Source: an uncultured Muribaculaceae bacterium
GTDB taxonomy: Bacteria; Bacillota_I; Bacilli_A; RF39; UBA660
Reading direction: 5' to 3'
Assembly: GCA_964630365.1 (NCBI GenBank)
Contig: CAZVUP010000002.1
Span: 10,188 to 74,187 of the forward strand
Length of the DNA stretch: 64,000 nt
How positions within the stretch are numbered: the stretch's first letter is position 1; the number at the start of each line of letters is the position of its first letter. The notes under the pieces are model-generated. The model was given only the letters and a program-made list of their open reading frames with translations. It ran no database searches and was not told the DNA's origin. This document shows positions 17,686 to 47,241 of this stretch, piece after piece. Made by a program: the position numbers and the translations under genes.

Positions 17686-17707
17686 AGAACTTAAGGCATT
17701 AAGTTCT
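17686..17707 (-). terminator. hairpin terminator
   Basis: AGAACTTAA ggca TTAAGTTCT perfect 9-bp stem followed by a T-run on the minus strand. Confidence 0.35.
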
Positions 17708-17811
17708 ACAAAAAATTTGAAAACTTAAATACCACAAAGGACAAAATTAGACTAAATCATCATTTGAAATAAATTAAGTTTTCAAATAACAATTTAGTTC
17801 TTATTCAATAA

Positions 17812-18237: not shown

Positions 18238-18480
18238 ATTAAAGGCACTCCTTCATCTTCAATTTAAGCCATTTTAAGAGACTTTATTTTTTATACTAAT
18301 AACCGATTAAGATTAATATCAAAGTCCCTTATTTCTTAAATTAAGTATCAACAAATTAAAATTTAGTTTTAATATTTATCACTTAAAAAAATAAATTTTG
18401 CAATAGTTTTTTTTAAATTTTTTTAATTTATTTTCTAATCTTATTACCATAATATTTTTCCTCCTTCCATTTTAAATTCA

Positions 18481-18678
18481 TTATCTTTTTTCATATCTTT
18501 CTATATAAGATCTATATCCTAGTTCTAATAAATAGATAAACATTTTATTCATACTAAAATTATTTTTAATTGCTAAAAGCTGTATTCTAGTTTTTAAATT
18601 ATTATCTATTCTTAGAGTGATTCTTTCAGTACATCTCATAAATTTTTTCCTCCATTCTTTAAAATATAGAGTAGCCAC
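18481..18678 (-). CDS. putative ribbon-helix-helix (CopG/Arc-like) DNA-binding protein
   Basis: 65 aa. RITLRIDNNLKTRIQLLAIKNNFSMNKMFIYLLELGY fits a beta-strand plus two-helix RHH fold. GTG start lies inside a copy of the repeated motif. Confidence 0.4.
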   Translation of the reverse strand: MATLYFKEWRKKFMRCTERITLRIDNNLKTRIQLLAIKNNFSMNKMFIYLLELGYRSYIERYEKR

Positions 18679-18930
18679 TTTTCACTTTTTTTAGGTATTT
18701 TTTAGGTAAAAAGACTTGCATTTTTTTAATGGGCATAAGGAGAATGCACCACAAACTTATATTTATCTTATAAAATAAAGCAAATATAGTGGTGTCATTA
18801 CTATTTTTGCACTTGCAAAAATGACTACTTTTATAGTAGTAAGTGGCTACTCATATACAAACCATCCTTTTATACCAACAAAAAAAAGTGGCTACTCTTT
18901 CTCTTAAAAGTGCCCACTCATGACTATTTC
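18667..18930. repeat. four copies of a 12-13 bp motif AAGTGGCTACTC (one inverted at the RHH gene start, three direct upstream)
   Basis: Copies at 18671-18686 (minus), 18846-18860, 18888-18902 and a variant AAGTGCCCACTC at 18912-18926. Confidence 0.55.
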
Positions 18931-19247
18931 ATTAAAAATATGTGCTTCCAATACTTTTTAATTAATAAAACCATCTCCCTCCAATGAAAAAAAGAGAAGA
19001 TTATAGTTCTTCTCCATATAATTTTTTCATATCATACACTATTATAACTATTCACAAACACAAGTCAAGCTCATTTTGTGTCCAATTCATGTCATACTAT
19101 GTACAATTTATGTCGCAAAAAAATGCATGTTTTCTTCACAATTCTTGCATATTTTACTATATTATACTACTTGACAATATGAAGTCAAGCCGATTTTGGT
19201 CTGGATTTGGACTTATTTGATCCGTTTTTGGTATGATTTGTGTTTTG

Positions 19248-21038
19248 TTAATTTTCATCATAATTTTTTTCAATAATAATGTCATCAATTTCTTTCTTAT
19301 GTGAACTTGAATAATTATTTGTCTGTAAGTCAATATAGAATTCATTATCTTTCATAAGTTCATTATGAGTACCTTGTCCAACAATATTACCTTTATTTAA
19401 AACAATTATTTTATCAGCAATCTTCATTACATCTTTTTTGTGAGTTATAATTATTATTGTATGATCTAATTTTAAATTTTCAAAAATATCTTTAATTTTT
19501 TCAACTAACAAGGTATCTAATGAACTTGTAACCTCATCAAAGATTAATATTTCAGCTTTTGATAATAGTGTCCTTGCTATTGCTAGTAATTGTTTTTGTC
19601 CTCCACTAAAGTTTGTAGCATTCTCTGTTAAAATAGTATTATATCCTTTTGGTAAACTCATTATATAATCATGAATACCAACTCTTTTACAAGCTTCAAT
19701 TTGATGCTCTATATTTGAATCTATTAGAGATAAATTTCTTTTAATGCTCATATTAAATATAAATGGAGATTGATTAACTCCAACTACATTAGTAGAGTAT
19801 ACATCTTTTGAATAATCATATAAATTTTCTCCATCTATTAGAATTTGACCATCATCTATTTTATATTTTCTGAGAATCAAATTTGTAATAGTTGTTTTAC
19901 CAGAGCCACTATGACCAACAAGTGCAGTAATTTTATTTGGTTCAGCAACAAAACTAATGTTTTCTATATTTCCTTTATTTTTAGATTTATAAGAAAAATT
20001 CACATTTTTAAATTCAACTAATCCATCAATATAATCATTGTCATTCATTCCAAAAGTTATTTGTTGTTTGCTTGAATAATTTAATATATTATTAATTCTT
20101 GTTATAGAAATAGACCATTCTCTAATTTGTCTTGAATATCCCATGAGATCATTTGTATTAGACATTATATTTTCAAAATATGTAATTAATAGTATTAACA
20201 TATTTACTTCATATCTACCTTTTAATACAAAAAACACTAATACTAAATATAATAATACTTTACCAAAATGTATTATAAATGGTAATAAACTTGATCTAAT
20301 ATTAACATATTTTCTCTTTGACATATATTGGTCAGACCATCTATTAGCTATTATATAAAAATTATTTTTTATCTTATCATAAATATTAAAAACTTTAATT
20401 TCACCTAATCCATTTAATATTTGTGACAAATTATCAGTTAGTTTATCTCTATATTTTTGTTGGCCTCTTAAATATTTTGTGCTCATTATATTACAATAAT
20501 CAAAAGACTTTAAATATAAATATTCTAATATCAAAACAAAAATACCAATATAAATATTTGTTTTTAAAAAGATAAATATCATTATAATAACTTTAACAAA
20601 AACAACAATTATTTCACAAACATTATCAATCATTTCAGATAAATTAGCAGTATCAGTGTTTACAGTATTTAAAATTGTTCCCTTAGATAATTTATCTGAA
20701 AACTCTGTGTCGTAGGTAAATACTTTATCTACAATTTTCTCTCTTAAATTTTTATAACTATACTTAAAATTATGAGAATATGAAACATAATTCAGATACC
20801 AGAATAAATTATATGCAATATATGTAATAGCCAACAAGCCTATATTCATATATGTTGCACTTGCATTACCATTAGTTACCTGATAAATAATATTGGAAGT
20901 AAATACTGGAATTAATAAACTAGATAGGTGTGCCATTATAGAACCGAAGAATAATAAAAATATCCATTTTTTAGTACCTTTAACTAACTTAAAAAAATCT
21001 CTTATTATTTTTATATTATCTTTTATCATAGTTACCAC
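19248..21038 (-). CDS. ABC transporter, fused permease/ATP-binding half-transporter (exporter type)
   Basis: N-terminal 6-TM domain. Walker A GHSGSGKTT, signature LSGGQKQLLAIARTL, Walker B ILIFDEVTSSLD. Confidence 0.85.
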   Translation of the reverse strand: MVTMIKDNIKIIRDFFKLVKGTKKWIFLLFFGSIMAHLSSLLIPVFTSNIIYQVTNGNASATYMNIGLLAITYIAYNLFWYLNYVSYSHNFKYSYKNLREKIVDKVFTYDTEFSDKLSKGTILNTVNTDTANLSEMIDNVCEIIVVFVKVIIMIFIFLKTNIYIGIFVLILEYLYLKSFDYCNIMSTKYLRGQQKYRDKLTDNLSQILNGLGEIKVFNIYDKIKNNFYIIANRWSDQYMSKRKYVNIRSSLLPFIIHFGKVLLYLVLVFFVLKGRYEVNMLILLITYFENIMSNTNDLMGYSRQIREWSISITRINNILNYSSKQQITFGMNDNDYIDGLVEFKNVNFSYKSKNKGNIENISFVAEPNKITALVGHSGSGKTTITNLILRKYKIDDGQILIDGENLYDYSKDVYSTNVVGVNQSPFIFNMSIKRNLSLIDSNIEHQIEACKRVGIHDYIMSLPKGYNTILTENATNFSGGQKQLLAIARTLLSKAEILIFDEVTSSLDTLLVEKIKDIFENLKLDHTIIIITHKKDVMKIADKIIVLNKGNIVGQGTHNELMKDNEFYIDLQTNNYSSSHKKEIDDIIIEKNYDEN

Positions 21039-21048
21039 ATCCTAACTT

Positions 21049-21900
21049 TTATACTCCAACTAATTCAGATTCTAATATACTAATTATTTCTTTTATTGCA
21101 TTAATTGTATCTTCAAATTTAACCCCTTTTGCATATAAATTTTTTGAAACATATTCATTCCATAAATTATTCATGTTATTATCATCAATCAAATCATTAA
21201 TAACTTCATTAAATTGTTCTATATCAATATTTGTTTCTCTTCTTTTAAAAGTATTATTAATTGCTTTAATCAAGTTATTTTTATTTAATTCATTCATCTT
21301 TATATTGATTAATATATAGACATCATAAAAATCCTTTAATCTGGTATTTAATAAACCTATAGTAACAATAGTTTGAAATTTTTCTGCTAGTACTGTCTCA
21401 AGTGTATATGACATTATAGGTATTTTTTTATTCTCAAAAATAGAATTATAATTATATTTCATCTCTTTTGGTGTAATAACATCTCCTGTTGTTAATTCAA
21501 CAGTAATATAGGTTTTATTATTATCTAACTTAGATAATATATTTAATCTAAAACCTCCATATTCATCTTCTAATCTAATATCTTTAATAGAAACAACTTG
21601 AAATGATACACCATCATCAATATCTATATTAAGTATTTCATTAAATACTTTTTCTACATCGTTTTTTGTAAGAGGGATACCCTTTAAAGTTGCATCCATA
21701 TCTTTAGTAGTTCTTTCATCATCTCCAATAATAGAAGTAAGTAATAATCCACCTTTTAATATTATTTGCCCTCTATAATTACTTATAGATATTCTTTCTA
21801 AAATTCTTTCAAAGTAAAATAATTGATAAAATTTTTGTGAAATATCACTATTACCATGTGCTTTTTTAGATATGATGTTTTTTAATTTGTCAGAATTCAT
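21049..21900 (-). CDS. AbiEii/AbiGii-type nucleotidyltransferase toxin (DUF1814)
   Basis: N-terminal FYFERILERISISNYRGQIILKGGLLL matches the AbiEii family N-terminus. 283 aa. Confidence 0.7.
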   Translation of the reverse strand: MNSDKLKNIISKKAHGNSDISQKFYQLFYFERILERISISNYRGQIILKGGLLLTSIIGDDERTTKDMDATLKGIPLTKNDVEKVFNEILNIDIDDGVSFQVVSIKDIRLEDEYGGFRLNILSKLDNNKTYITVELTTGDVITPKEMKYNYNSIFENKKIPIMSYTLETVLAEKFQTIVTIGLLNTRLKDFYDVYILINIKMNELNKNNLIKAINNTFKRRETNIDIEQFNEVINDLIDDNNMNNLWNEYVSKNLYAKGVKFEDTINAIKEIISILESELVGV

Positions 21901-22511
21901 TAAAGTAACACCTCCATATATTCAAGAACTTTTTTATCAATATTTAATTTTTTTGCATATTTCATTAGTTTTAATAAATTTTTATCTTTTCTTTCGGCAT
22001 ACCATTTTAATGCTTTTGTAAAAATCTCTTTATCCATATGATTTCTATATTTAACTATATCACAAATAGTTCTTTCTAAATCATAAGTTCTAAGTTTCAT
22101 TCCAAAAGGAGATTCAACAGTAGTTAAACCTAGGTCTAAAAACTCTTTTTTTACATAATGTAATTGAACATTTTTATCCTTACTTAAACTACCACTATAT
22201 CCAACTGGTACAGTCATATCAAAATAAAGTGGTGTTCTATCAGATAAATCATAAAAATAAAGCGCTGTAGAATGAGAAAAAACACAGTTTTTAGATTTTA
22301 ATTGATATTTATAATAATCATCACAAAAAGAATTAGTAATTGCATAATATCCTCTTGTAATTCTTTCTAATTTATTTTGTTCAACTAATCTTGTTAATTC
22401 AATAGTATTAATATTTGCATCCTTAACTTGTTTTGTTGTCACATATCCGTTATTTTCATTTGCAATTTTAATAATTTTCTCAGCATTAGTCATATTATCA
22501 CTTTCCTTCAT
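21900..22511 (-). CDS. AbiEi-type antitoxin/transcriptional regulator
   Basis: N-terminal winged-helix-like block (YVTTKQVKDANINTIELTRLVEQNKLERITRGYY). Start overlaps the stop of the AbiEii gene. Confidence 0.65.
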   Translation of the reverse strand: MKESDNMTNAEKIIKIANENNGYVTTKQVKDANINTIELTRLVEQNKLERITRGYYAITNSFCDDYYKYQLKSKNCVFSHSTALYFYDLSDRTPLYFDMTVPVGYSGSLSKDKNVQLHYVKKEFLDLGLTTVESPFGMKLRTYDLERTICDIVKYRNHMDKEIFTKALKWYAERKDKNLLKLMKYAKKLNIDKKVLEYMEVLL

Positions 22512-23135
22512 TTTAATTTTATCATTTATTTAAAACTAAGTAAATGTATTTTGTTGCTTTTATACTTATTTTTTTATTTTTTTGCGTTTTTTTACAACAT
22601 TATATATAAACAAAAAAGCCAACTTGTCTTGTCAGCTTTTCTGTCAAACATGCATTTATTTATAAATAATGCATCATTCATAAATAAATGTTTACACCTT
22701 TGTAAGCTTTGACATGCTTACACTCACTACTTACTGCTTGAATAATATTTAGTGGCAAAATGAGCTTAATACTCAACAATATCCCATTCCCCATAATCCT
22801 ATCTTAAGTTTTGTAACAATAAATCGTTACATAGCGCTAAAATTACATTTAATGGTTGTTAACTAATCATTTAATACTAAGGGTGTACCACCAAAGGTAA
22901 AATCGCTTTTAACACGACATCACCTCCTAATTTTCGTCATTTTCAAGATAAAATATATACAAGTATACACTTTATCCATCTAACGACAACTAAATTATAT
23001 CATAAATCCCAGTTTTTACCAAGTAAATAAAAGGAAAAAGTCAAATTTTTATGAATAAATTATAATTAAATTCAACATCATACTTTTTCATATATTTACT
23101 AGTAATTCCTATAGTTATAGTAAAGGTATCATTTA

Positions 23136-24392
23136 TTAGACAGTAAGGTGAATTGGTGTAACACTAACTCCCTGTCCAAAAGCACTAGTAGCAAGTTCAA
23201 CATTTCCAACCCTATTTAAAGGAAATAAAATACCACTTCCTTCACCATTTAAATCAATACCTGTCTTTTCACCAAAACCAAATTTATTAATATAAGAAAA
23301 AAGTCTTTCTTTACCCAAAAGTTGCCCTATTCTGACAAAACCAGGATTACAAGAATTTTGTAATACTTGAAGAAAAGTCTGATCACCATGTCCTCCTGCC
23401 TTCCAACATTTTAAAATACTACCATCTACGTTTACTTTACCCGAATCATAAAAATGATCATTAAAAATATCAATAACGCCTTCTTCAACAGCTGAAGCCA
23501 TTGTAACCACTTTAAAAGTACTTCCTGGCTCATAAGATGCCCAAATAGGTAAATTTCTACTAAGAGTTGCACTATCATAATCTTTATAATTATTTGCATC
23601 AAAATCAGGTGTAGAACTCATTCCTAGTATTTCACCATTTTTAGGATTAACTACAATCGCTAAAGCCATATCTGGTTGAAACATATCAACAATATTATCC
23701 ATCTCGCGCTCTAAAGATTTTTGTATATTAATATCTATTGTTAAATTAATATTCATCCCACTTGTAGGGGCAACATAAACATCAGTCATATTAATCTTAT
23801 TTCCATGGGCATCAGCAAAATACTTTATTGCTCCATTTTTACCAGTCAAATACTTATCATATTGTAGTTCTAATCCAGCTAATCCTTGATTATCGATACC
23901 AACATACCCTAATGAATGAGAAAGTAAATCTTTATATGGATAATTTCTTTTAGCTTCTTTTACTAAATAAACACCTTCTAAGTTTAATTTATCAATTCTA
24001 TCAGCAATATCATAAGATAATCTTCTCCCTTCAGGATGAACTCTTTCTATTGAAACTTTTTTCATAACATGCTTTTTCATTTCATCATAACTAACATTAA
24101 GAATCTTAGAAAGCTCAGTAATAGCTTTTTTCTTTTCCTTAATTTGATTTGGTATCAACACTAAAGATGTTGTCGTCAAATTATCAGCAAGAACATTACC
24201 ATTTCTATCAAGTATTTTCCCTCTGTCTGCTTCAATTTCTAAATTTCTACTCCATAAGTCTTTAGCTAAATTATTTAACTTTTTATATTGAAAAAACTGA
24301 ATATAAAAAACTTTAAATATTATTAAAATAAATAATAGTAACATAATTAAAAATAAAACTTTAATACGTCTATCTATTCCTTTTTTAAACAT
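23136..24392 (-). CDS. class B PBP (SpoVD-like), 5' portion of the gene split by the inserted element: TM anchor, dimerisation domain, SxxK and SxN motifs
   Basis: MFKKGIDRRIKVLFLIMLLLF TM helix. STFK (SxxK) and SCN (SxN) transpeptidase motifs. Ends GQGVSVTPIHLTV-stop, exactly where PBPs continue with TPLQ...AVSAV. Confidence 0.85.
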   Translation of the reverse strand: MFKKGIDRRIKVLFLIMLLLFILIIFKVFYIQFFQYKKLNNLAKDLWSRNLEIEADRGKILDRNGNVLADNLTTTSLVLIPNQIKEKKKAITELSKILNVSYDEMKKHVMKKVSIERVHPEGRRLSYDIADRIDKLNLEGVYLVKEAKRNYPYKDLLSHSLGYVGIDNQGLAGLELQYDKYLTGKNGAIKYFADAHGNKINMTDVYVAPTSGMNINLTIDINIQKSLEREMDNIVDMFQPDMALAIVVNPKNGEILGMSSTPDFDANNYKDYDSATLSRNLPIWASYEPGSTFKVVTMASAVEEGVIDIFNDHFYDSGKVNVDGSILKCWKAGGHGDQTFLQVLQNSCNPGFVRIGQLLGKERLFSYINKFGFGEKTGIDLNGEGSGILFPLNRVGNVELATSAFGQGVSVTPIHLTV

Positions 24393-30013: not shown

Positions 30014-30127
30014 TTTTTATTTCACACTCCTTCCAACGCAAAAAAGCCACATATCACTTATGCGGGGCATAAAGATATCCAGCTAAATTGCAAAAACGTC
30101 TAGATGAACATAACATACTTTCAGAAA

Positions 30128-30160
30128 AAAGTAAAGAGAAAAACAAAAAAATAGGAAATA
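30128..30160 (-). terminator. rho-independent terminator after the ybjQ-like gene
   Basis: Minus strand AAATAGGA tatt TCCTATTT followed by a T-run. Confidence 0.5.
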
Positions 30161-30162
30161 TC

Positions 30163-30477
30163 CTATTTTAATTTAACAGCTGTTCCATAAACAATAATCT
30201 CTGCAGCACCTTGCATAACAGCAGATGAGCCATAGCGAACACAAACAATAGCATCAGCCCCCAAAGCTTCTGCTTCATCAACCATTCTCTTAGTCGCAAT
30301 CTGTCGTGCTTCACGAATCATTTCTGTATATCCTTTAATTTCACCACCAACTAAAGTCTTCATTCCTGCCATAAAATCACGACCAAAGTTTTTAGCCTGA
30401 ACAATTTCTCCTTTTACTACTCCTAAAGATTCCTTAATTTCTTTTCCTTCTAATTTGTCTGTAGTAACTATTATCAT
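30163..30477 (-). CDS. YbjQ/UPF0145 family heavy-metal-binding domain protein
   Basis: 104 aa with the characteristic layout (IIVTTDKLEGKEI...GGEIKGYTEM...EALGADAIVCVRY). Confidence 0.75.
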   Translation of the reverse strand: MIIVTTDKLEGKEIKESLGVVKGEIVQAKNFGRDFMAGMKTLVGGEIKGYTEMIREARQIATKRMVDEAEALGADAIVCVRYGSSAVMQGAAEIIVYGTAVKLK

Positions 30478-30485
30478 AAATCCTC

Positions 30486-30725
30486 CTAATATTTCTTTGC
30501 TTCCTCTTCTTCGCCACCTTTAAGTTCTCTAATACGAGAAATAAGTGCTATAGTAACGCCTAAAAGAGGAATTCCAATTATAATTAATAAAATACTGACA
30601 AGTGGCTTAGGCATACTATTATCAAAAATAAAACCATCAGAAAAAACAAGTATTAGAATAAAACTGTAATAGATGATAACACTAAGTCCTGATAATAATG
30701 CACCCCACAACTTTTTCTTGTTCAT
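30486..30725 (-). CDS. small two-TM membrane protein
   Basis: 79-aa ORF with two hydrophobic helices. Its stop abuts the SOR gene start. Confidence 0.4.
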   Translation of the reverse strand: MNKKKLWGALLSGLSVIIYYSFILILVFSDGFIFDNSMPKPLVSILLIIIGIPLLGVTIALISRIRELKGGEEEEAKKY

Positions 30726-31067
30726 TTATTTTATTTCTCCATTCATCCAAAGACTATGTTTATTACAGTAACTATAAGCCACCATACCATCTTTAAAATC
30801 AACTACTAGTTTAGGTTCTTCATGAGGAAGAAAATGTTTTATAATTTGTTCATTGCCATAGTCAACTAAAATCCATTCAATATAATGATCTTCTTCCATG
30901 ACATGATTAACAAACACTTCAACTTTATCTCCTAATATATTATATTGTGGAACGTGTTTTTCAAAGGAAGCATCCACATCGTTAGATTTTAAAACCTTAT
31001 CAGTAACATCTTCAACCTCTTTTAATAGCATCATTATATTTCCATTTTGACATTTAACTATTTTCAT
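30726..31067 (-). CDS. superoxide reductase (desulfoferrodoxin/neelaredoxin family, single-iron type)
   Basis: Fe ligand set EKHVP (Glu, His), HVMEEDHYIEWI (His, His), YCNKHS (Cys, His). No N-terminal desulforedoxin Cys cluster. Confidence 0.7.
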   Translation of the reverse strand: MKIVKCQNGNIMMLLKEVEDVTDKVLKSNDVDASFEKHVPQYNILGDKVEVFVNHVMEEDHYIEWILVDYGNEQIIKHFLPHEEPKLVVDFKDGMVAYSYCNKHSLWMNGEIK

Positions 31068-31438
31068 ATAAATTCACTCCATTCTTTTTCGTTAAATCCA
31101 ATTAAAACTATATTATCTAAAATTAATAATGGTCTTTTAATAAGCATACCATCACCAGTAAGTAAGCTAAGTTTTTCATCATAACTTAATGATTTTAGTT
31201 TTTCTTTCAAATTAAGTTCACGATATTTTAAACCACTAGTATTAAAAAATTTATTTATATCTTTATTACTTTTCTTTATATATTTATGAAGTTCATTAAT
31301 ATCTGGAGTTTCAATTAATATATGTCTTTCTTCATAATTTATATTTCTTGATTCTAAAAACTTCTTTGCTCTCTGACAAGTAGAACATTTAGGGTACCAA
31401 TAAAACTTCATTCTACTTACTCCATGTTCTTTCTTCAA
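31064..31438 (-). CDS. ArsC/Spx family thioredoxin-fold protein
   Basis: FYWYPKCSTCQRAKKFLESRNINYEERHILIETP is a CxxC-containing N-terminus typical of ArsC/Spx/YffB proteins. 124 aa. Confidence 0.65.
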   Translation of the reverse strand: MKKEHGVSRMKFYWYPKCSTCQRAKKFLESRNINYEERHILIETPDINELHKYIKKSNKDINKFFNTSGLKYRELNLKEKLKSLSYDEKLSLLTGDGMLIKRPLLILDNIVLIGFNEKEWSEFI

Positions 31439-32351
31439 TATCTTTTAACAAATCTGCAGATTCTTGATAAGAATCCAACATTCTATCAACAGCACTATAA
31501 CTATCTTCTGCAGTTATAGATATAGGTTGTTCAATAGTACTTATCAAAGCATCAACATTAATATATGTTCCATATGTTGCGTGAACAATGTTGTATAAAT
31601 CATCTCCATGCCTTAACTCATCATAAAATTCTCTAAAGCAACATATTTCTGTTGGCCTAGAATGCGCCGAAATATTTTCTTCATTATCTACCATATCTTC
31701 AGGAGCAGCTTGCGGTATATAATCTACAGCCGGTCTTACAGCAACAATTTTCTCAGGCATCACATGAACAGATTGCCTCATATTAGCAATATCATCTTCC
31801 CCAACCTTAATTTTTCTAAACTTATCAGTCGCAACTATAGGATTAGAAAAATGAATTATTTCTATATCTTCAACATCTAATTTTTCGCTTTGCTTAACGG
31901 CTTTTACTGAGGCTTCTTTATATTTAGCTAAAACTTGACGTTCTAATTCAATCATATGTCTTAAAAATATAGATTTATTATTTTCACCCAACAACTTTTC
32001 AGCATATTCAGTTCGTATTTGATCTAATTCTTCAGCACTAAGCAATCTCTCATTATCAAGTCTAGATTGTTTTTCGTATAAGAGTTTCCTTGTTCTATCA
32101 TATAACTCTTCATATAATCTCACTGTAGCATCTAATTGAGCTTGCATATCTTTTTCTTTTTTTGAGAAACCATCACTAGAAGTTGTTGAACTATCAAGAG
32201 AAAGACTATGTATTTTTTCTTCTAAGTCAGCCAATTCATGAGTAATATAATCAATAAAATCTGCCTCAGCTTGTTGTCGTTGAACTTTTCCTAATAATTC
32301 ACGAAGTTTATTCAATCTTTCAGTATAGTTAACAGTCTCTAATTTACTCAT
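31413..32351 (-). CDS. hypothetical protein with N-terminal coiled coil (312 aa)
   Basis: ORF only. Confidence 0.45.
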   Translation of the reverse strand: MSKLETVNYTERLNKLRELLGKVQRQQAEADFIDYITHELADLEEKIHSLSLDSSTTSSDGFSKKEKDMQAQLDATVRLYEELYDRTRKLLYEKQSRLDNERLLSAEELDQIRTEYAEKLLGENNKSIFLRHMIELERQVLAKYKEASVKAVKQSEKLDVEDIEIIHFSNPIVATDKFRKIKVGEDDIANMRQSVHVMPEKIVAVRPAVDYIPQAAPEDMVDNEENISAHSRPTEICCFREFYDELRHGDDLYNIVHATYGTYINVDALISTIEQPISITAEDSYSAVDRMLDSYQESADLLKDIEERTWSK

Positions 32352-32677
32352 AAATTGCCTCCTCGTACTTCTAAATCCATATTCTGTAAAGTCTTATTAA
32401 TAAAAGAAAGTTCATCTATATTAGTAATTGGTTCAAAATTATTATCCTTCGTATTTTTATTATAAGATGATACAAAGACATTTTTTCGCTCATTCTTACC
32501 AATAGTATTATCAGTATATCCAATGTAAAGAACATCTTTAATTGGTGAATCAAAAGTAAACAAAACATCATATTCTTTTATAACACCATCTTTTTCAATT
32601 TTAATCTTTTGAGTACTATTTATAACTTTCATCCTTACGACCTCCAAGTATCCCATTATCCTAATTAAGTTTATCAT
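32348..32677 (-). CDS. DUF1292 (UPF0473, YrzB-like) family protein
   Basis: IKIEKDGVIKEYDVLFTFDSPIKDVLYIGYTDN...NVFVSSYN...EPITNIDELSFI follows the DUF1292 pattern. Confidence 0.5.
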   Translation of the reverse strand: MINLIRIMGYLEVVRMKVINSTQKIKIEKDGVIKEYDVLFTFDSPIKDVLYIGYTDNTIGKNERKNVFVSSYNKNTKDNNFEPITNIDELSFINKTLQNMDLEVRGGNL

Positions 32678-32699
32678 TTCATAATAAAAAAGTCAATCA

Positions 32700-32733
32700 A
32701 ACAAAAAACCGGTGCAAAGCACCGATTATAATA
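32700..32733 (-). terminator. rho-independent terminator
   Basis: Minus strand CGGTGCTTTGCACCG hairpin followed by GTTTTTTG. Confidence 0.5.
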
Positions 32734-33000
32734 CTATTTATCTTCTGGAAACATTCCTTCATATTGAGCACTATAGTCATTAAATAATTGCTGTAAAATG
32801 ATTAGATTTTTCTCTTCTAAAACTCTAGTTTCACCATCTTTTTCTATTACTTTTAAAACTACATATTTATCTGTCGGTTCTTTCTTGTCATCTAACAATA
32901 CAGACAAGAAATAACTATCATTTTTATAACTTTCTTCTAATAGTAGTAAATATTCTTTACCACTTGCCAATGTTATAACTGTATCAACTTTCACTGCCAA
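32734..33000 (-). CDS. small acidic protein, DUF1292-like (weak)
   Basis: 88 aa. ITLASGKEYLLLLEE...YVVLKVIEKDGETRVLEE loosely resembles the neighbouring DUF1292 protein. Confidence 0.35.
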   Translation of the reverse strand: MAVKVDTVITLASGKEYLLLLEESYKNDSYFLSVLLDDKKEPTDKYVVLKVIEKDGETRVLEEKNLIILQQLFNDYSAQYEGMFPEDK

Positions 33001-33008
33001 TCCTCCTT

Positions 33009-34826
33009 CTATCTTCCTTTACCGGCTGACATTTCATCTTCTTCTGTTGCTTGAGGATCATTAACCATATCAGCTAAAGGATTATAATTTTTGACATGAT
33101 CCTTCTTTTTCTTTTTAACGACTCTATTCAATTTATACTGTAGAGCCTTTTTTTCAGAATTTGAAAGCTCTGGTGATTCAATTTCTGCCAATATCTTCAT
33201 TGCAGCTGCTTTGAAATCACTATCACTTAAATTATTAACAACTTGGTTCAATTTTGCTATTTCAGCAACTAGTTGCTTATATTTCTCAGAATTTTTTGTA
33301 AGCAACCCTGCACCAACTGCACCCATTCCACCAATACCAGTTATAAGTGCTGCCGCTTGCATTCCTTTTACTGCACTCGCAGCCGTTGTTGCCGCTTCAG
33401 CTGCAGCTGTTGTTGCTGCACCTAATGACTGTCCACCAATTGTCCAAACTCCTGTTGCATCAGCAAAAGTAGATGTCATACCAGTAAGTGATGAAACATT
33501 TGCTGCTAAAGCCTCACTAGACTTATGTAATGCAACTTTCATTGCCGGAGCTGCTGAATGCCATTGAGCAGCATTCTTACTCATAACAGCCAAACTATTT
33601 GAAACAATTTGTGCATTATTAGCAGCTACTAAAGCAGGTAGTAAATGAGTAACAACCAAGTATAAGCTTACAGCCATGGCAGCTAATCCCAAAACAATTA
33701 AAATCTGTTTTTTATGATCTTTTACCCATTGCCATGGTGTTTTCTTTACAACTACATCACCCAATACATCATCTGGTTCACCAGGATCTGGACTTGGTTC
33801 CGGAGTTGGCTCTGGAGTTGGCTCTGGACTTGGCTCTGGACTTGGTTCTGGATTTGGTTCTGGACTTGGTTCTGGATTTGGTTCTCGATTTGGTTCTGGA
33901 TTTGGTTCTCGATTTGGTTCTGGATTTGGTTCTGGACTTGGCTCTGGACTTGGCTCTGGAGTTGGTTCTGGACTTGGTTCCGGAGTTGGTACCGGAATTG
34001 GTTCTGGAGTTGGTTCTGGACTTGGTTTCGGATTTGGCTCTGGATTTGGTACCGGAATTGGATTTTCTTCTGGAAGAGACATATTCTTCAAAGCATCGCC
34101 AGTTATAGCACCTTCTACCATTGCAGATGCATCAGTCCATACCGGCCTATTCTCAGGTGAACCATCCAACTGAATATATTTATATTTACCTTTTTCTGAA
34201 CCAAACATACCTTTTTTCTTTAATTCTTCTACACTAAGACCTTCTACTTCAGATTTTAAGACTTCATTTTTTTCTCTATAAATATCAGATATTTTTGCTA
34301 CTAAATCTGCTATTTTTTTATCTATTTCTTTTACTTCTGTTGAATTAGCTCCATGTTCTTTCTCTGCTTTTTCCCTCTCAGCAGAAAGTTCAGCAAACTT
34401 ACTTTCATAGCTTTCTAAGGTCCTATTATATATTTTTGAAGAAACCTTTTTCTCATTCTTAGGCAATTCCATATTAAAACTACCATATACGTTTTTATCA
34501 GGTTCCTTACCATATGCAACTTTATATATATCATTGAATAGTTCTAAATAAGCTAAACACTTTTCTTTATCTTCCTTCGAAATGGAATCATAGCCACCAC
34601 CACGAACAAGCAATATACGATATTCTCTAACCAAATTTTCTAGAATAACATCAATAATTTCTTCTTCACTCATAACATCGTTTCTAACATAATTATTTGA
34701 ACGAAATTGTCTGGTTGAATAATTACCATTAGCACCTTTACTTATTTCTAAATCAGTATACCATTGGCTATCAACATTTGAATTATTTACTAATTCCATT
34801 ATTTTTTCAAGCTTTGTGTAATCCAT
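33009..34826 (-). CDS. hypothetical bitopic protein with a ~100-aa (X-P-E-P)n tandem repeat, one TM helix and an Ala/Gly-rich C-terminal domain
   Basis: [91 protein letters not shown], then [22 protein letters not shown], then an A/G/T-rich region. Confidence 0.55.
33775..34075. repeat. tandem 12-nt (GGTTCTGGAYTTGG-type) DNA repeats encoding the PEPx repeat
   Basis: Near-perfect 12-mers visible directly in the sequence, e.g. ggttctggatttggttctcgatttggttctggatttggttctcgatttgg. Confidence 0.8.
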
Positions 34827-34953
34827 AAATAACCACTCCTCTACAATATGATTCTAACTTTTTTAATTACACATGTCAATATTACAAAACATATTTATTA
34901 CAATTGTTTACGCGTTGAAGTGTAACACAAAATGAAGTTTTTGTCAATTAAAA

Positions 34954-35592
34954 CTACTCTTCTGAATCATCTGAAGTCTTTTCACTGACAATAGAAATCT
35001 GTATTTTTTCACCATCTTGAACATCATTAGCTTCTTCTACTTCAACATAATAATAATCAGTAATTTCTTCATCTTTAACTAATTTTATTGGATCAGACTC
35101 AGTCATTGTTTTAGCATCTATCACTTTCTTATTATCATCCTTTGTTACAGAAACGACTGAACTTGTATTATTGGTAATCGTTAAACGATAATAAACATCT
35201 TCTGAATTAACTTCACCATTACGATAATTTGTAACTTTAAATAGATATTTTTTACCAACTAACGATTTAAGATCAATGCCAAAAGAATAATTAGCATTAA
35301 AATCTCTTATTGGTACCACCATATTAGCTTGTATTTCTTCAGTTTGATTACGATTTTTATGATATACCATAAATGCCAAAATGATAACTAAAACAACTAA
35401 AAAAGCAAAAACCATTTTTAAAAATACAATTGATGACAAAAATTCTTTAATACTACTTTTTGCTTTTTTCTCCTCTTGTACTGCTTTTTTAGTCGCCTTT
35501 TTAGATGCTTTATTTACACTAGTTTTTCTTACAGTTTTCTTTTTATTTTTTAAATCACTTTTTTTAACATTTTTATTATCTTTTTTATTCAT
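34954..35592 (-). CDS. hypothetical membrane-anchored protein with Lys-rich N-terminus (212 aa)
   Basis: Basic N-terminus, one TM (FLVVLVIILAFMVY) and an extracytoplasmic beta-rich domain. Confidence 0.45.
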   Translation of the reverse strand: MNKKDNKNVKKSDLKNKKKTVRKTSVNKASKKATKKAVQEEKKAKSSIKEFLSSIVFLKMVFAFLVVLVIILAFMVYHKNRNQTEEIQANMVVPIRDFNANYSFGIDLKSLVGKKYLFKVTNYRNGEVNSEDVYYRLTITNNTSSVVSVTKDDNKKVIDAKTMTESDPIKLVKDEEITDYYYVEVEEANDVQDGEKIQISIVSEKTSDDSEE

Positions 35593-35668
35593 AAAATCAC
35601 CAACTATCTATCAAATACATCTTATAACAATTCATCATTCAAAGTCAATAAAAAAGCATAAGGTATTC

Positions 35669-36229
35669 TTATACTTTTATTTTAGAAATTATTCCCAACT
35701 TGTAATTAAATGTCTTTTTAGAAATAACACCAGTAGATGGATTATAATAAACAACTATTTTTACTTCTAACTTGCCATCAGGTTCAATAACTTTACCACT
35801 AACATCATCAAGTTTTATTGAAACTGGAGAAATAAGTTTTTTAAAATAATTATCAGTATAGTCAGGACTAGTCATTAAAGTAACCATTTCAATTGGAACT
35901 GTTCCTTCATTTTTAATAACAGCAATATAAGTTATTTCATCTCTAGGAGCATTTAATGTAAAATTCATATCCAATAGTTGACCTGATTCATCTATTTTAA
36001 AAGAACTTGTAGGCTCGACTTCTGACCCCTTTACAGAAGATGACTTCATAACCTCTGAGAAAATAACTTCATAATTACAACTTTTATTTTTCTCTTTTTG
36101 GAGCTGTACTGCTACAACACTAAATCCAATACCTAAACAAACAAGAGTAAAACAAAGAATAATTATAATACAATTTCTAATATTAATTCTTTTTTTCATA
36201 AAAATCACCTTCTTTTTATTGTTCAACAC
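35669..36229 (-). CDS. hypothetical secreted/anchored protein (186 aa)
   Basis: N-terminal signal anchor and a beta-strand-rich mature region. Its start overlaps the pbpB stop. Confidence 0.45.
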   Translation of the reverse strand: MLNNKKKVIFMKKRINIRNCIIIILCFTLVCLGIGFSVVAVQLQKEKNKSCNYEVIFSEVMKSSSVKGSEVEPTSSFKIDESGQLLDMNFTLNAPRDEITYIAVIKNEGTVPIEMVTLMTSPDYTDNYFKKLISPVSIKLDDVSGKVIEPDGKLEVKIVVYYNPSTGVISKKTFNYKLGIISKIKV

Positions 36230-38363
36230 TAAATTTTGGTGCTAATTTTAAATGTATTTCCATACCATCACCAATTGCTGTTCCTTCAGCAATTGACTGT
36301 TCATAAACATAGCCTGTTCCTTCCATGGTCACCTTAAGTCCTATTTTTTGTAAAATATCTTTAGCAATTTTTCCAGATATTCCATTAACATTAGGAACCA
36401 AAATATTAGTATCATTTGTTACTAAATACACAACCTCATTTGTTGTTATTGTATCATTAACTTTTTGAATTTGATTAATTACTTTATTACCATTTCCAAT
36501 AAACACATATCTGATACCCATACTATCAAGTAATACTCTTGCAGCATCAACTTTTTTATTAATTAAATTAGGCATTTTATATTCCTTAACTTCTACAGTA
36601 GAACTATTGCTATCAGTATTACCATAATACTTTGAAACATTATTAACTATATCTTTAACAGCATTGCTAACAGGCTTCTGACTACCACCACTTGGTCTCT
36701 TTACTGAAGCATATATTATAATTTGAGGATTACTCTTAGGATAAATCCCTGAAAAAGATGAAATAATATCCTCTTTACCTGATAGATATCCCCCACCTCG
36801 TTCATTAGCAATTTGCGCTGTACCTGTCTTTCCAATTAATTCTCCACTATCAATTCTATAACCACTACCAGTATTACCTACACCATTAACACAATCATCC
36901 ATTAATTGAAACATTTTAACTACTGTATTAGTTGAGGCAACTCTCTCTATCTCTTCTCTTCCTTTTTCCAGAACAATTTCTCCAGTAGAAGAATCTACTA
37001 TTTTAGATACTAAATAAGGTTCTAATAACATTCCATCATTAGTAAGAGGCGTCATAGCTTTCACATTTTGAATAGGTGTTGTAGTTATACCTTGACCAAA
37101 TCCAGCATTATATATTTCTGTTTCATATTTAAATTCCAAATTACCCTTATTTTCACTTGGAAGTTCAATACCTGTTCTTCTACCAAAGCCCAGCCTTCTA
37201 AAATACTGTCTTAACATAATACTAGACATATGTCTATTGATCATATTAATAACCCCAACATTACTACTCATCGCATATCCCTTATCAAAAGAAATTACAC
37301 CCCAACCATTTCTATTCCAATCACCAATTTCTGTACCATCAGCAGTAGTATAGACACCTGACTTATATGTTTCATTTCCATTATAAACTCCATTTTCCAT
37401 AGCAGCCATATAAGTAAAAGTTTTCATTGTACTACCTGGTTCATAAGGAGAAGAAACCATTAAATCTAAATAATTTGTAATATCTCTAACATTCGGATCA
37501 AAAGAAGGATGAGTTGCTGTAGCAAGAATTGCTCCTGTCTTAGCATCCATAATAGTAATATGAAACCATTCCCAATCATAACTATAATCAGCATCAGTAA
37601 TTGCTTGTTCAACAAAAAATTGAATACTAGAATTAAGTGTTAAATAAATATCTTTACCTTGAACTGCATCTTTAGTAATAACTGGTGTATTAGCAATTCT
37701 ATATCCTTTTAAGTCTTTTTGATAAGTAGTATAACCATCTTCTCCCTTTAAAATATCATTATATTGCTTTTCTATTCCCATCTCACCAACAATTGACTCT
37801 TCATCATTACCAGTAGTATAGCCAATAGTATATGAAGCAAAATTACCTTTTGGATAATATCTTTTAAAACTTTCAATAAATCCAAGACCCGGTAAATTAA
37901 GATCTTCTATTTGTTTTTTAGTAATTTCATTTAGTCCTTTACCTTTTGTTCCAAATTCAGTTTGATAAACATTTTCTTTATTTAAATATTTTAAAATAGC
38001 ATCTTTTTCCATTCCTAAAATAGGTGCTAATTTTTCTGCTGTTTCTTCTTTATTTACAACATGCTGAGGTTTTTTTTCATTTGTCGTTCTCTTCGGATCT
38101 AAAAAAGCAATTAATTTATAGGAAGCAACATTTTGAGCTAACAAATCACCATCAGCCGAGTAAATAGCCCCCCTATTAGCCGAAATTACATCTGTCTTTG
38201 TCGTTCTTTGACTTGCTAAAGTACCAAGATCAATTCCATCTATTTTTCTAGACATTCCTAATTGAACTACTCTTCCTATCATTAGGCAAAATAAAAGAAG
38301 AGAACACACTATAAATACTTTAGAATATTTAATATTATTTTTTCTCTTCTTTCGTTTTTTCAA
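36216..38363 (-). CDS. pbpB: class B penicillin-binding protein 2B (division transpeptidase) with two C-terminal PASTA domains
   Basis: SxxK (STMKTFT), SSN and KTGTA motifs. Two PASTA repeats. 715 aa. Follows ftsL. Confidence 0.9.
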   Translation of the reverse strand: MKKRKKRKNNIKYSKVFIVCSLLLFCLMIGRVVQLGMSRKIDGIDLGTLASQRTTKTDVISANRGAIYSADGDLLAQNVASYKLIAFLDPKRTTNEKKPQHVVNKEETAEKLAPILGMEKDAILKYLNKENVYQTEFGTKGKGLNEITKKQIEDLNLPGLGFIESFKRYYPKGNFASYTIGYTTGNDEESIVGEMGIEKQYNDILKGEDGYTTYQKDLKGYRIANTPVITKDAVQGKDIYLTLNSSIQFFVEQAITDADYSYDWEWFHITIMDAKTGAILATATHPSFDPNVRDITNYLDLMVSSPYEPGSTMKTFTYMAAMENGVYNGNETYKSGVYTTADGTEIGDWNRNGWGVISFDKGYAMSSNVGVINMINRHMSSIMLRQYFRRLGFGRRTGIELPSENKGNLEFKYETEIYNAGFGQGITTTPIQNVKAMTPLTNDGMLLEPYLVSKIVDSSTGEIVLEKGREEIERVASTNTVVKMFQLMDDCVNGVGNTGSGYRIDSGELIGKTGTAQIANERGGGYLSGKEDIISSFSGIYPKSNPQIIIYASVKRPSGGSQKPVSNAVKDIVNNVSKYYGNTDSNSSTVEVKEYKMPNLINKKVDAARVLLDSMGIRYVFIGNGNKVINQIQKVNDTITTNEVVYLVTNDTNILVPNVNGISGKIAKDILQKIGLKVTMEGTGYVYEQSIAEGTAIGDGMEIHLKLAPKFSVEQ

Positions 38364-38381: not shown

Positions 38382-38681
38382 TTAGCTATCTTCTACAACA
38401 GATTTTATATTACTATTATTATAACTCAAACCTTGTTGTTCTGCAACTTGCTGTATCTTCGTAAGTGATGCTAATTCATCAATTGTCATAGCAAGAGATT
38501 CATTAGTCTTTTTCTGTTTTTCTATTTCTTTTTTCTGCTTTTCTACTTCAAAATTAATTTCTGCTAATGTAGCTTTCGAAAAAACTATTGAAACCGGTGA
38601 AACAACTAATAATAGTACTGCAACGGTATACAAAAGTTTTTCAAATTTAGAAATCTTAACACGCTTTTTCACCTTTTTCAT
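38382..38681 (-). CDS. ftsL: cell division protein FtsL
   Basis: 99-aa bitopic protein with a coiled coil, between rsmH and pbpB. Confidence 0.6.
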   Translation of the reverse strand: MKKVKKRVKISKFEKLLYTVAVLLLVVSPVSIVFSKATLAEINFEVEKQKKEIEKQKKTNESLAMTIDELASLTKIQQVAEQQGLSYNNSNIKSVVEDS

Positions 38682-38690
38682 AAAGACCTC

Positions 38691-39623
38691 CTATTTTATT
38701 CTTTCTATAACTCTAAGCTTTGCACTCCTGGCCCGAGGATTATTCTCTAATTCCACAGAACTTGGCACAATTGCTTTATTTACAACTAACTTAAAATTTG
38801 GCAAATACTCTTCAGGGATATTTGGCATTCCCTTTAGCCGTTCATCAATCGCTGTCTTTTCCCTAAAAATATTCTTTACCAATCTATCTTCCAAAGAATG
38901 AAAAGTAATAACAGCAATTCGTCCTCCAACTTTTAAAATATCCATCGCTTGTAAAAGTGCAGGCTCTATAACATCTAATTCATGATTTACTTCAATTCTA
39001 ATTGCTTGAAAAATTTGTCGAGCTGGATGTTTATCTATTCTAAATTTCATTGGAACAGCAGTTTTAATTATTTCAACTAATTCAAGTGTTGTCTCAATTG
39101 GTTTCTCACTTCGATATTCAACAATTTTTTTAGCAATATTATTTGCAAATTTTGCCTCACCATACTTATGAAAGATTTTTGCTAACTCTTCTTTAGAATA
39201 ATCATTAACAACTTCATAAGCTGATAATTTTTGTTCTTGATCCATTCTCATATCAAGTCTTGCATCCTGATGATAAGAAAATCCTCTTTCAACATCATCA
39301 AGTTGAGGCGAAGATACGCCTAAATCAAATAAGACAGCATCAACTTCAAAAACGCCAAGATTTTGAAGTTCACTTTTCATATTAACAAAATTACTTTTAA
39401 TGATAGTGAAGTTAGTACCGATCTTTTTTAAGCGATCGGTACTATGCCGAATTGCTTCACTATCTTGGTCAAAGGCGAATAAATACCCCTCGTTTATTCT
39501 ATCCAAGATGTTACTACTGTGTCCTCCATAGCCAAGTGTTGCATCTACTACAATACTATTTACATTTAAATTTAGGGAGGAAATAGATTCTTCTAGTAGA
39601 ACGCTTATATGTTTTTCCGTCAT
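38691..39623 (-). CDS. rsmH: 16S rRNA (cytosine1402-N4)-methyltransferase
   Basis: HISVLLEESI...DATLGYGGHS N-terminus and SAM-MTase motifs. 310 aa. Sits after mraZ. Confidence 0.9.
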   Translation of the reverse strand: MTEKHISVLLEESISSLNLNVNSIVVDATLGYGGHSSNILDRINEGYLFAFDQDSEAIRHSTDRLKKIGTNFTIIKSNFVNMKSELQNLGVFEVDAVLFDLGVSSPQLDDVERGFSYHQDARLDMRMDQEQKLSAYEVVNDYSKEELAKIFHKYGEAKFANNIAKKIVEYRSEKPIETTLELVEIIKTAVPMKFRIDKHPARQIFQAIRIEVNHELDVIEPALLQAMDILKVGGRIAVITFHSLEDRLVKNIFREKTAIDERLKGMPNIPEEYLPNFKLVVNKAIVPSSVELENNPRARSAKLRVIERIK

Positions 39624-40090
39624 AAATTCACACTTTCATTAAATAAATTTTCGGCTATGTCTGACATACTGTCTTTCGTAGAATTGAAGAAATCATCCCA
39701 AGCCTCTTGAGCCCATATTTCTAATCTGTCACCAGTACCAACGATTACGCAATCTTTCTTCAAACCTGCATAATTAATTAATGGTGACATAACATTTACT
39801 CTTCCTTGTTTATCCAATTCTACATTTGTAGCACCTGACATAAAGAAACGATTAAAAACTCTCGCATCTTTTTTAGTAAAAGGTAGTGAATTTAATTTAT
39901 TACAGATTTCATCCCAATTAGCATTAGAATAGACGAAAAGACAATTTTCAATTCCTCTGGTAATAATAAAACTATCGCCAAGATCTTCGCGAAACTTAGC
40001 AGGAATTATAATTCTACCTTTATCATCTATCGTATGATGATATTCTCCTATAAACATATTCATCCCCCACTTTTCACCACAATCAACCAC
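39620..40090 (-). CDS. mraZ: transcriptional regulator MraZ
   Basis: MFIGEYHHTIDDKGRIIIPAKFRE and a second DxxGR repeat. The true start is probably the internal Met (MFIG...). Confidence 0.85.
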   Translation of the reverse strand: MVDCGEKWGMNMFIGEYHHTIDDKGRIIIPAKFREDLGDSFIITRGIENCLFVYSNANWDEICNKLNSLPFTKKDARVFNRFFMSGATNVELDKQGRVNVMSPLINYAGLKKDCVIVGTGDRLEIWAQEAWDDFFNSTKDSMSDIAENLFNESVNL

Positions 40091-46790: not shown

Positions 46791-47241
46791 ATCTCCTCCT
46801 CCAATTATTTAATGTCCAATAACTAAAACTAGCTGCTATTCCACCAATAGTATCAATTACAACATCAAGTATTTCTCCACTTCTCCCATTAACAAACATC
46901 TGATGGACTTCATCACTAATCGCATATACAAAAACAATCAAAATAGTCAAAGCAATACTTCTATAACTAATAATTGTAAATTCTTTGATAAAACTAATAA
47001 TAGCTAAACCTAGTAAAAAATATAAAAACAAATGTGCACTTTTCCTAACTATTTTAACAAATTTTTTTATATATTTTTCCTTCTCATATTCACTAAGTTT
47101 CCTTTCTAATATTACTTCACATGACTTAACTATAATAGAATCACTTTTCTTCGTCGATTGACTACCAGTATCTGCTGATAAAGAAAATATAAATGCCATT
47201 AATAATACTATTATTATAAATTTAACTACTTTTCTAATCAC
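46780..47241 (-). CDS. VanZ family protein
   Basis: 4-TM. C-terminal ISDEVHQMFVNGRSGEILDVVIDTIGG matches the VanZ-like motif. Confidence 0.6.
   Translation of the reverse strand: MIRKVVKFIIIVLLMAFIFSLSADTGSQSTKKSDSIIVKSCEVILERKLSEYEKEKYIKKFVKIVRKSAHLFLYFLLGLAIISFIKEFTIISYRSIALTILIVFVYAISDEVHQMFVNGRSGEILDVVIDTIGGIAASFSYWTLNNWRRRFDE

Follow-up and report, generated by a model that had tools for sequence, protein, structure and literature searches.

Six genes downstream of pbp2B in an uncultured low-GC bacterium: a possible composite tail of the division and cell wall operon

The subject of this analysis is a run of six co-oriented open reading frames (ORFs) in a window of 64,000 nucleotides from an uncultured bacterium (contig CAZVUP010000002.1 of GenBank assembly GCA_964630365.1). 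The ORFs, of 186, 212, 605, 88, 109 and 312 amino acids, lie on the minus strand at 31413-36229 and are referred to here as A186, B212, C605, D88, E109 and F312. They stand directly after ftsL and pbp2B, the gene of a class-B penicillin-binding protein (PBP), exactly as a first-pass annotation of the DNA had placed them, and none of the six proteins reaches a curated Pfam or NCBIfam cut-off. That annotation treated the genes as a single block with a common role in division or the envelope. We are somewhat more inclined than not to read the region instead as a composite tail of the division and cell wall (dcw) operon, in which three independent two-gene modules of differing history (A186-B212, C605-D88 and E109-F312) have come to stand next to one another without forming one unit. 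The observations are of gene structure, membrane topology, predicted folds of A186 and C605, synteny and base composition, and from these we infer every functional statement made below.

The signals between the genes are consistent with a division into modules. The pbp2B and A186 ORFs overlap, a gap of 127 nt precedes C605, and E109 and F312 overlap by 4 nt; counted from the likely true starts, A has 176 aa, D has 86 aa and E has 94 aa. A terminator-like hairpin lies directly after the D88 stop codon (Table 1), and it recurs after the D gene, there encoding D86, of the near relative L073, with three changed positions and the pairing preserved. The first-pass annotation had rightly recognized a terminator here but assigned it to the boundary between the last two genes, whereas it sits between the fourth and the fifth, the fifth and sixth being the pair that overlaps. 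Promoter-like sites precede C605 and E109. If the six genes formed a single operon with pbp2B, co-orientation and short gaps would be expected, and both are found, but the conserved hairpin between D88 and E109 interrupts the run. The unit that opens with E109 and F312 continues into spx, a superoxide-reductase-like gene and ybjQ, and therefore operon position alone is weak functional evidence.

Table 1. Positions of the six ORFs, their signals and the neighbouring genes in the window.
Feature	Position	Strand	Description
ftsA and ftsZ	49725-52085	-	Upstream, on the same strand as the six ORFs
murE-like Mur ligase gene	47241-48701	-	9 kb upstream
mraZ	39620-40090	-	Start of the mraZ-rsmH-ftsL-pbp2B run
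ftsL	38382-38681	-	Directly before pbp2B
pbp2B	36216..38363	-	Class-B PBP, 715 aa; Pfam PBP_dimer, Transpeptidase and two PASTA domains; directly upstream of the six ORFs
A186	35669..36199	-	176 aa from ATG at 36199; the ORF list extends to GTG at 36229; type-II membrane protein
B212	34954..35592	-	Single-pass; transmembrane segment 48-81; K-rich cytoplasmic tail of about 47 aa; ectodomain of about 130 aa
Promoter-like site	34851..34879	-	TTGACA-17-TAGAAT, 11/12, in the gap before C605; consensus match only
C605	33009..34826	-	N-domain 1-205; (xPEP)n linker at about 250-350; conserved C-terminal module
12-nt tandem repeat	33787..34061	-	22.9 copies; encodes the (xPEP)n linker of C605
D88	32734..32994	-	86 aa from GTG at 32994; small acidic soluble protein, pI 4.5
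Terminator-like hairpin and T-run	32697..32727	-	Stem 32727-32707, 9 bp, -13 kcal/mol, z = -3.65; directly after the D88 stop
Promoter-like site	32668..32696	-	TTGACT-17-TAAACT, TG-extended, before E109; consensus match only
E109	32348..32632	-	94 aa from ATG at 32632, preceded by GGAGG; divergent DUF1292
F312	31413..32351	-	Short member of the GIANT family
spx/arsC-family gene, superoxide-reductase-like gene, gene of a 79-aa protein with two transmembrane segments, ybjQ	30047..31411	-	Rest of the downstream unit
Terminator-like hairpin	30065-30047	-	After ybjQ

The history of the first module can be read from the gene order in related genomes. With PBP2B as the query, 65 loci were retrieved from a genome set that holds one genome for each GTDB species; for counts of gene order the clade is defined by a PBP2B identity of at least 59%, and the denominators are the loci with enough downstream sequence. 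The usual order in this clade is ftsL-pbp2B-[X290]-A-[X455]-B-E-GIANT-spx, where X290 and X455 are two further N-terminally anchored proteins of the relatives and GIANT is the family to which F312 belongs. A gene of the A family follows pbp2B in 34 of 37 loci, B is present in 28 of 29, E in 24 of 28 and GIANT in 19 of 28. Three additional A homologues, found by sequence alone and without pbp2B playing any part in their selection, all lie after pbp2B, and A-like proteins also follow it in the distant relatives L058 and L059, whose PBP2B is 44-46% identical to that of the window. Conservation next to pbpB, which the first-pass annotation had proposed as a check, is thus borne out for homologues of A, B, E and F, which accompany pbp2B in the majority of the roughly 40 species-level genomes of relatives. 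Neither X290 nor X455 has a homologue in the window.

Both products of the first module are N-terminally anchored by one transmembrane (TM) segment each, in agreement with the first-pass annotation. In A186 the segment spans residues 14-44, and an AlphaFold2 (AF2) model built from 13 sequences, with a predicted local distance difference test score (pLDDT) of 89, consists of a helix at residues 2-40 followed by an ectodomain folded as an eight-strand immunoglobulin (Ig)-like beta-sandwich. Foldseek matched this model to generic beta-sandwiches only (adaptin ear, GAE and MSP, with TM-scores of about 0.3). A TasA-like or pilin-like identity was considered for A186 and found no support, as its N-terminus, read from the sequence, carries neither a prepilin nor a SipW-type motif. 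The B212 ectodomain is conserved in the clade loci. Neither protein matches Pfam or NCBIfam, POTRA_1 and FtsQ included; hhalign comparisons among A, B, X290 and X455 reveal no homology beyond the TM helix, and there are no paralogues of A or B elsewhere in the window.

Some loci of the relatives hold further genes in this region. In L013 (15258-15710) and L084 (6142-6600), a gene for a protein of 150-152 aa with the cytidine/deoxycytidylate-deaminase fold (PF00383, E 6e-26; MafB19-like) lies between X455 and B, and ORFs of 150-162 aa occupy the same place in about ten more loci (among them L012, L017, L020 and L041), where the correspondence is one of position and size only. The window has no deaminase-fold gene between its pbp2B-linked genes. 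In the distant relatives L058 (12033-16832) and L059 (8276-9653), the A-like proteins after pbp2B are arranged in tandem, and three of the four share an N-terminal motif, ..AALSQTLTINGTA..W.V. The A-like genes of L058 are followed by genes for a protein with Big_2 and CBM_2 domains, a protein with a weak Peptidase_S26 match and a DUF5305 protein, an arrangement that may point to a system of processed surface proteins with a relationship to family A. Homology of X455, X290, A or B to these Big_2, S26-like or DUF5305 neighbours was looked for with hhalign and none was found.

The second module has a different distribution. In all 17 loci examined outside the window (L073, L076-L082, L085-L091 and L093), a D homologue of 81-90 aa directly follows a C homologue. 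These D proteins are 44-80% identical and share the motif VITL..GK.YLLLLE...YFL.V, so that the cassette can be recognized by two features, a TPWQW-KDHKK two-TM module followed by a motif-bearing acidic protein of 81-90 aa; C605 and D88 have both. D88 has no match in Pfam or in the Protein Data Bank (PDB), and a PDB sequence search with the D profile likewise gave nothing significant. At the pbp2B site the C-D pair is confined to the nearest relatives, L073 (PBP2B 88% identical to that of the window) and L072 (84%), and it is not at this site in about 28 more distant members of the clade. The C605 N-domain, the C605 C-domain and D88 are all absent from the 65 GTDB pbp2B loci.

Outside the window clade, none of the C-D loci carries A, B, E or GIANT, and at least seven other neighbourhoods have the pair but none of A, B, E and F. 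The pair lies after rplL in L079, before dcuC, cofD and whiA in L082, near yfhO in L096, and among genes of unknown function in L078, L090 and L091, with TrbL/TraC/VirB4-like genes further on in L078. In L086, L088 and L089 it is directly upstream of the gene for a PASTA-containing class-B PBP, which is followed by a 292-aa gene and mraY, and in L077 it lies 1.5 kb upstream of the gene for a 690-aa PBP. In the window, the orthologue of the L086 PBP is the second class-B PBP (60% identity) and not PBP2B (30%). In the clade loci L014 and L024 this second PBP gene comes just after GIANT and a LysR gene, so that there the whole block lies between two class-B PBP genes. Counting the window clade, C-D is within a few genes of a class-B PBP gene in three of about eight independent arrangements; as class-B PBP genes are few in any one genome, this appears to exceed what chance would give. 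On sequence grounds, C-D appears to be a self-contained and widespread cassette with its own promoter-like site and terminator, its link to PBPs being recurrent but not obligate.

An additional arrangement was seen in L081 (117-4689), where a second, inverted copy of the D gene encodes a protein 100% identical to the first. This copy follows the gene of a single-TM protein of 269 aa, which has nothing but a C-terminal tail (ENTMTEN.G.G) in common with C, and the copy is itself followed by a gene for a canonical 75-aa DUF1292 protein. In the window, too, D is followed by DUF1292, and therefore the D-DUF1292 order occurs in two unrelated contexts.

The larger partner of the cassette, C605, had been described as bitopic in the first-pass annotation. 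It contains two hydrophobic segments (373-403 and about 488-509) that AF2 models as a helical hairpin, so that both ends of the protein are predicted to be cytoplasmic. The AF2 model, built from 67 sequences, has pLDDT values of at least 90 over residues 1-200 and 360-590 and runs from a helical N-domain through a disordered linker, TM1, an extracytoplasmic loop and TM2 to a cytoplasmic C-terminal helical bundle. The loop comprises about 85 aa and is folded as a helix and beta-hairpin, while the C-terminal module opens with a basic juxtamembrane motif before TM1. In Foldseek searches the model gave nothing at E<1 in the PDB and nothing at E<0.4 in BFVD, and C605 has no Pfam or NCBIfam match. 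The PEPx repeat reported in the first-pass annotation is genuine, and its copy number varies among strains: the window protein has 605 aa, and that of L003 (L003:3350-5143), whose allele has lost eight residues of the repeat and carries two substitutions within it, has 597 aa.

Relatives of the C-terminal module were sought exhaustively with HMMER among 1.84 billion representative proteins, and the best 150 matches include at least 66 clusters, of 190-1014 aa. The N-termini of these relatives are variable and rich in coiled coils, while their conserved motifs include TPWQW-KDHKK, EQxALHxxN and GxWTxGG, with the invariant or near-invariant residues mostly in the TM segments and the loop; searches of Pfam and NCBIfam returned no family name for them. 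A first iterated hidden Markov model (HMM) of C605 drew in GIANT proteins, which proved to be an artefact of low complexity and coiled coils, as the separate N- and C-domains match nothing in L007-L071, and hhalign detects no homology between the C605 N-domain and GIANT. In the C proteins of the nearest relatives (L073:10788-12404, P0028), a segment IVYRGTV...IGYDGVNGPEETMSFNYYV resembles by eye the N-terminal domain of GIANT, IFSG...IGYDGVEDQNGISET..KFVVY; hhalign gives no support for an exchange of domains.

In the third module, the affiliation of E109 comes from its orthologues. Of 15 aligned orthologues, 13 match the DUF1292 family PF06949, the best at E 5.1e-8; the orthologue in L008 (L008:15636-15911) exceeds the gathering cut-off of 24 bits with a score of 27.8, and the one in L083 is also DUF1292 in its precomputed Pfam annotation. 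The window protein itself has no PF06949 match at E<=0.1 in its 109-aa form or at E<=0.01 in its 94-aa form, and it matches NCBIfam PRK13678 at E 6e-5 with 23.5 bits, below the cut-off of 88. A PDB sequence search with the E profile found nothing significant. The first-pass annotation had described both D88 and E109 as tandem DUF1292-like acidic proteins and had suggested profile searches for the pair. These uphold the assignment for the E109 family, through its orthologues only, and not for D88: six members of the D family have no PF06949 match at E<=1, and hhalign gives D88 a probability of about 3% against the E family and of 0.8% against the canonical 75-aa DUF1292 protein of L081, which leaves a resemblance by eye only. 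E109 is moreover only mildly acidic, with a pI of 5.4 in its 94-aa form. In the literature on DUF1292, UPF0473 and yrzB, we found mentions in lists or tables only and no functional study.

F312 was assigned to the GIANT family by local blastp and HMM searches on the fetched loci. In a homology search of a large database it retrieved only itself, as the sole member of its 90% cluster family, and it has no Pfam match; in this putative coiled-coil protein, as the first-pass annotation described it, residues 1-160 contain no proline and are rich in E, K and L. GIANT proteins of the relatives, encoded after the DUF1292 gene, are 370-1990 aa long, cytoplasmic, and free of TM segments and Pfam domains. 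Seven of them (L007, L008, L022, L023, L026, L027 and L033) contain two to eight copies of a repeat of about 80 aa with the consensus ITIYRDLDDNNKVYARKEVLDRFGLEPIGEEVKINGEACYEISEEDVQKILENANNSKSPYEVEYKDVEL, which has no Pfam match and is not present in F312; a relationship of this repeat to DUF1292 was sought with hhalign and not found.

How the three modules might work can be outlined from these data. A186 and B212 would be type-II membrane proteins with beta-rich ectodomains, putative in the case of B212, that lie outside the membrane beside PBP2B. They would have been inherited with pbp2B within the clade, while X290 and X455 would have been lost from the window genome, and we picture A and B as non-essential, fast-evolving extracytoplasmic accessories either of the machinery that builds the septal wall or of the wall as such. 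C605, with its long, variable, helical and partly disordered N-terminus and its conserved residues concentrated in the core of TM segments and loop, may be a membrane scaffold through which D88, as the partner on the cytoplasmic side, is coupled to a step of peptidoglycan synthesis outside the cytoplasm. E109 and F312 could form a cytoplasmic complex, the genes of which would open a separate unit running into spx. Only synteny suggests the envelope or cell-wall role, that of four families with pbp2B and, independently, that of C-D with another class-B PBP gene: the link to cell-wall genes that the first-pass annotation saw is real in terms of gene order, the function it proposed is hypothetical, and the divergence of A and B speaks against a place in the core divisome.

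Several observations weigh against this picture. Within the same genomes, identity is 33-50% for A and B, against about 70-77% for PBP2B and about 80-89% for FtsL. Such divergence, two to three times faster than that of PBP2B and FtsL, fits accessory or surface proteins better than core components of the divisome, as does the dispensability of X290 and X455 in the window genome. The promoter-like matches are no commoner in the region than in shuffled sequence. Five to six of the roughly eight informative C-D neighbourhoods have no PBP gene nearby (rplL, WhiA/CofD, the type IV secretion system (T4SS)-like genes and YfhO), and the E109-F312 unit includes spx, the superoxide-reductase-like gene and ybjQ, which are unrelated to division. 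All of the organisms involved are uncultured.

A more specific proposal, to which we give only tentative credence, is that C605-D88 is an undescribed, widely conserved membrane module that cooperates with class-B PBPs in making peptidoglycan at the septum or in a sporulation-type process, with A and B as further accessories of the divisome. If this were so, the periphery of the divisome in uncultured gut Bacilli would be unlike that of model Firmicutes, and would include a two-TM scaffold of new fold with an obligate partner of about 85 aa.

Slightly less probable still, in our estimation, is that A, B and perhaps C are ordinary fast-evolving surface or wall proteins, with roles in adhesion or in interactions with the host or phages, which ride on the strongly expressed dcw promoter and take no part in wall synthesis. 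The generic nature of the Ig-like sandwich in A186 would suit such proteins, as would the low identity of A and B relative to PBP2B, the species-variable gene content between pbp2B and spx, the strain-variable number of PEP repeats and the company kept by the distant A-like proteins of L058, which adjoin Big_2/CBM_2, S26-like and DUF5305 proteins. Surface proteins of this kind would not, however, be expected to keep their adjacency to pbp2B over divergence as deep as that of the A-like genes of L058 and L059, or to lack paralogues elsewhere in the window; nor does this explanation account for the independent position of C-D next to the second PBP gene and mraY.

That all six genes constitute one operon, the products of which act jointly with PBP2B in division or envelope biogenesis, now seems improbable. 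The co-orientation, the short gaps and the overlap of the pbp2B and A186 ORFs speak for it, as does the synteny of four of the six families with pbp2B across the clade. This is opposed by the conserved terminator between D88 and E109, by the occurrence of C-D without the other four families, by its absence from this site in most of the clade and by the X290, X455 and deaminase-fold genes that relatives carry inside the block. The single block of the first-pass annotation thus gives way to three modules, one of which is found alone elsewhere.

The least probable alternative, already largely refuted, is an island gained by horizontal transfer (a defence system, a polymorphic toxin with its partner, or the remnant of a mobile element), for which sub-threshold matches to Relaxase (E 0.016, F312), the mobile-element family CD1108 (E 0.043, B212) and SLATT (E 0.012, C605), the variable length and repeats of GIANT proteins and the TrbL-, TraC- and VirB4-like genes near the C-D locus of L078 could be cited, but against which stand a native base composition, a chromosomal site kept in more than 30 species, and negative searches throughout. 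The GC content at third codon positions (GC3) is 0.13-0.20 in the six genes, 0.12-0.23 in the flanking genes and 0.13-0.16 in pbp2B, ftsZ, ftsA and the murE-like gene, the higher overall GC of C605 stemming from its Pro, Ala and Gly codons. PHROG and PADLOC scans matched only the low-complexity PEP region, tblastn against 50,697 phage and 72,556 plasmid records gave no match, IMG/VR gave none, and no integrase, tRNA or repeat boundaries occur at the six-gene block. With respect to type VII or LXG systems, neither the six proteins nor three GIANT proteins match WXG, LXG or EssC in Pfam or NCBIfam, and the longest ORF in the window is pbp2B (715 aa), so the window contains no ORF of EssC size. 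The first-pass annotation had named absence or loss of linkage in close relatives, together with anomalous composition, as the outcome that would speak against its block; composition proved native and A, B, E and the F family are linked to pbp2B in most clade genomes, and it is only C-D that is restricted at this site to L072 and L073.

The host of these genes is a low-GC bacterium (27%), and the identical sequence is also present in gut metagenome assemblies of ENA and Logan. The nearest species-level genomes are metagenome-assembled genomes (MAGs) from the rumen, rabbit and human gut labelled Bacilli, Erysipelotrichaceae, Mollicutes or Tenericutes, with a PBP2B at most 79% identical to that of the window. 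On the minus strand the order is mraZ, rsmH, ftsL, pbp2B and then the six genes from A186 to F312. The first-pass annotation had remarked that murE would be expected after pbpB; as ftsA, ftsZ and a murE-like ligase gene are found further upstream on that strand, the dcw genes are dispersed, and murE stands elsewhere rather than being absent. Between 42621 and 52085, ftsA and ftsZ come first, then the murE-like ligase gene, with an arginase-family gene between them on the opposite strand; these are followed by vanZ, a Polysacc_synt flippase gene, and genes for a sigma-70-family factor, a polysaccharide deacetylase and two Tim44-like proteins, then by yqeG and yqeH, and last by mraZ. Directly upstream of ftsA, in the usual place of divIB, five tandem paralogous genes (52156-58857, minus strand; GC 0.20-0.22) encode polytopic membrane proteins of 437-460 aa that have the N-terminal motif E.WNYGF...G.IPY.DFN in common; a Pfam scan of two of the five gave no match.

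The second class-B PBP gene of the window is split (15133-24392, minus strand), as established against the intact orthologue of L086: residues 1-415 are encoded at 24392-23148 and residues 412-634 at 15801-15139. The approximately 7.3 kb between the halves contain a gene for a 555-aa large serine recombinase (15761-17428; PDB 3g13 at E 7e-38, TP901-1 integrase at E 3e-12) that abuts the 3' half, an ABC exporter gene (19248-21038) and AbiEi/AbiEii genes (21049-22511). The arrangement resembles an integrated or skin-like intervening element within the gene of a SpoVD-like PBP. Neither the Rfam nor the tRNA scan of the window gave a match.

Clusters of dcw genes are among the best conserved gene clusters in bacteria, and a lineage-specific gene fixed in such a cluster may well encode an undescribed regulator or scaffold of wall synthesis. 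The A and B families are candidates of this kind, as is the C-D cassette, which adjoins class-B PBP genes in three arrangements.

Lineage-specific membrane proteins are known from the dcw clusters of Firmicutes, as in the case of DivIB/FtsQ and of YlxW, YlxX and Sbp of Bacillus subtilis. A186 and B212 are like these in being small single-pass proteins with their bulk outside the membrane, encoded in the dcw operon near ftsL and pbpB. They differ from DivIB/FtsQ in having no POTRA or FtsQ match and, in A186, an eight-strand Ig-like sandwich, and from the dcw membrane proteins in evolving far faster than FtsL and PBP2B, with X290 and X455 lost altogether in this genome.

In its architecture, C605 is analogous to proteins of the RodZ, MapZ and EzrA types, with a cytoplasmic N-domain, a Pro-rich disordered linker, a basic juxtamembrane motif and an extracytoplasmic part. 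It differs from them in its two TM segments, its cytoplasmic C-terminal bundle and its obligate partner gene D88, and no sequence or structural similarity between them and C605 was found. The C-family protein P0046 matches TIGR04527 (MG_279/MG_280 of mycoplasmas) over TM1, loop and TM2 at E 3e-4 and the two-TM family SLATT_1 at E 0.008, and C605 matches SLATT_fungal at E 0.012. These scores are far below the cut-offs (20 versus 125 bits; 16 versus 41), and the other nine proteins of the C-family scan match neither TIGR04527 nor SLATT_1, so that the resemblance may be a lead but is not evidence of membership.

E109, through its orthologues, resembles DUF1292/UPF0473 proteins (PF06949; the YrzB type of B. 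subtilis), which it also matches in being soluble and about 90 aa long, although the window protein on its own falls below every curated cut-off. The usual location of DUF1292 genes is the yrzL-ruvX-yrzB neighbourhood, whereas the E109 gene lies near pbp2B, in a stop/start overlap with the gene of a large helical protein. GIANT/F312 is a first consistent genomic partner for one branch of the long-uncharacterized DUF1292 family. What is new in this region concerns protein families and does not amount to a novel type of system: it consists of a cassette that has no name and whose predicted fold is unmatched, together with this partner of a DUF1292 branch.

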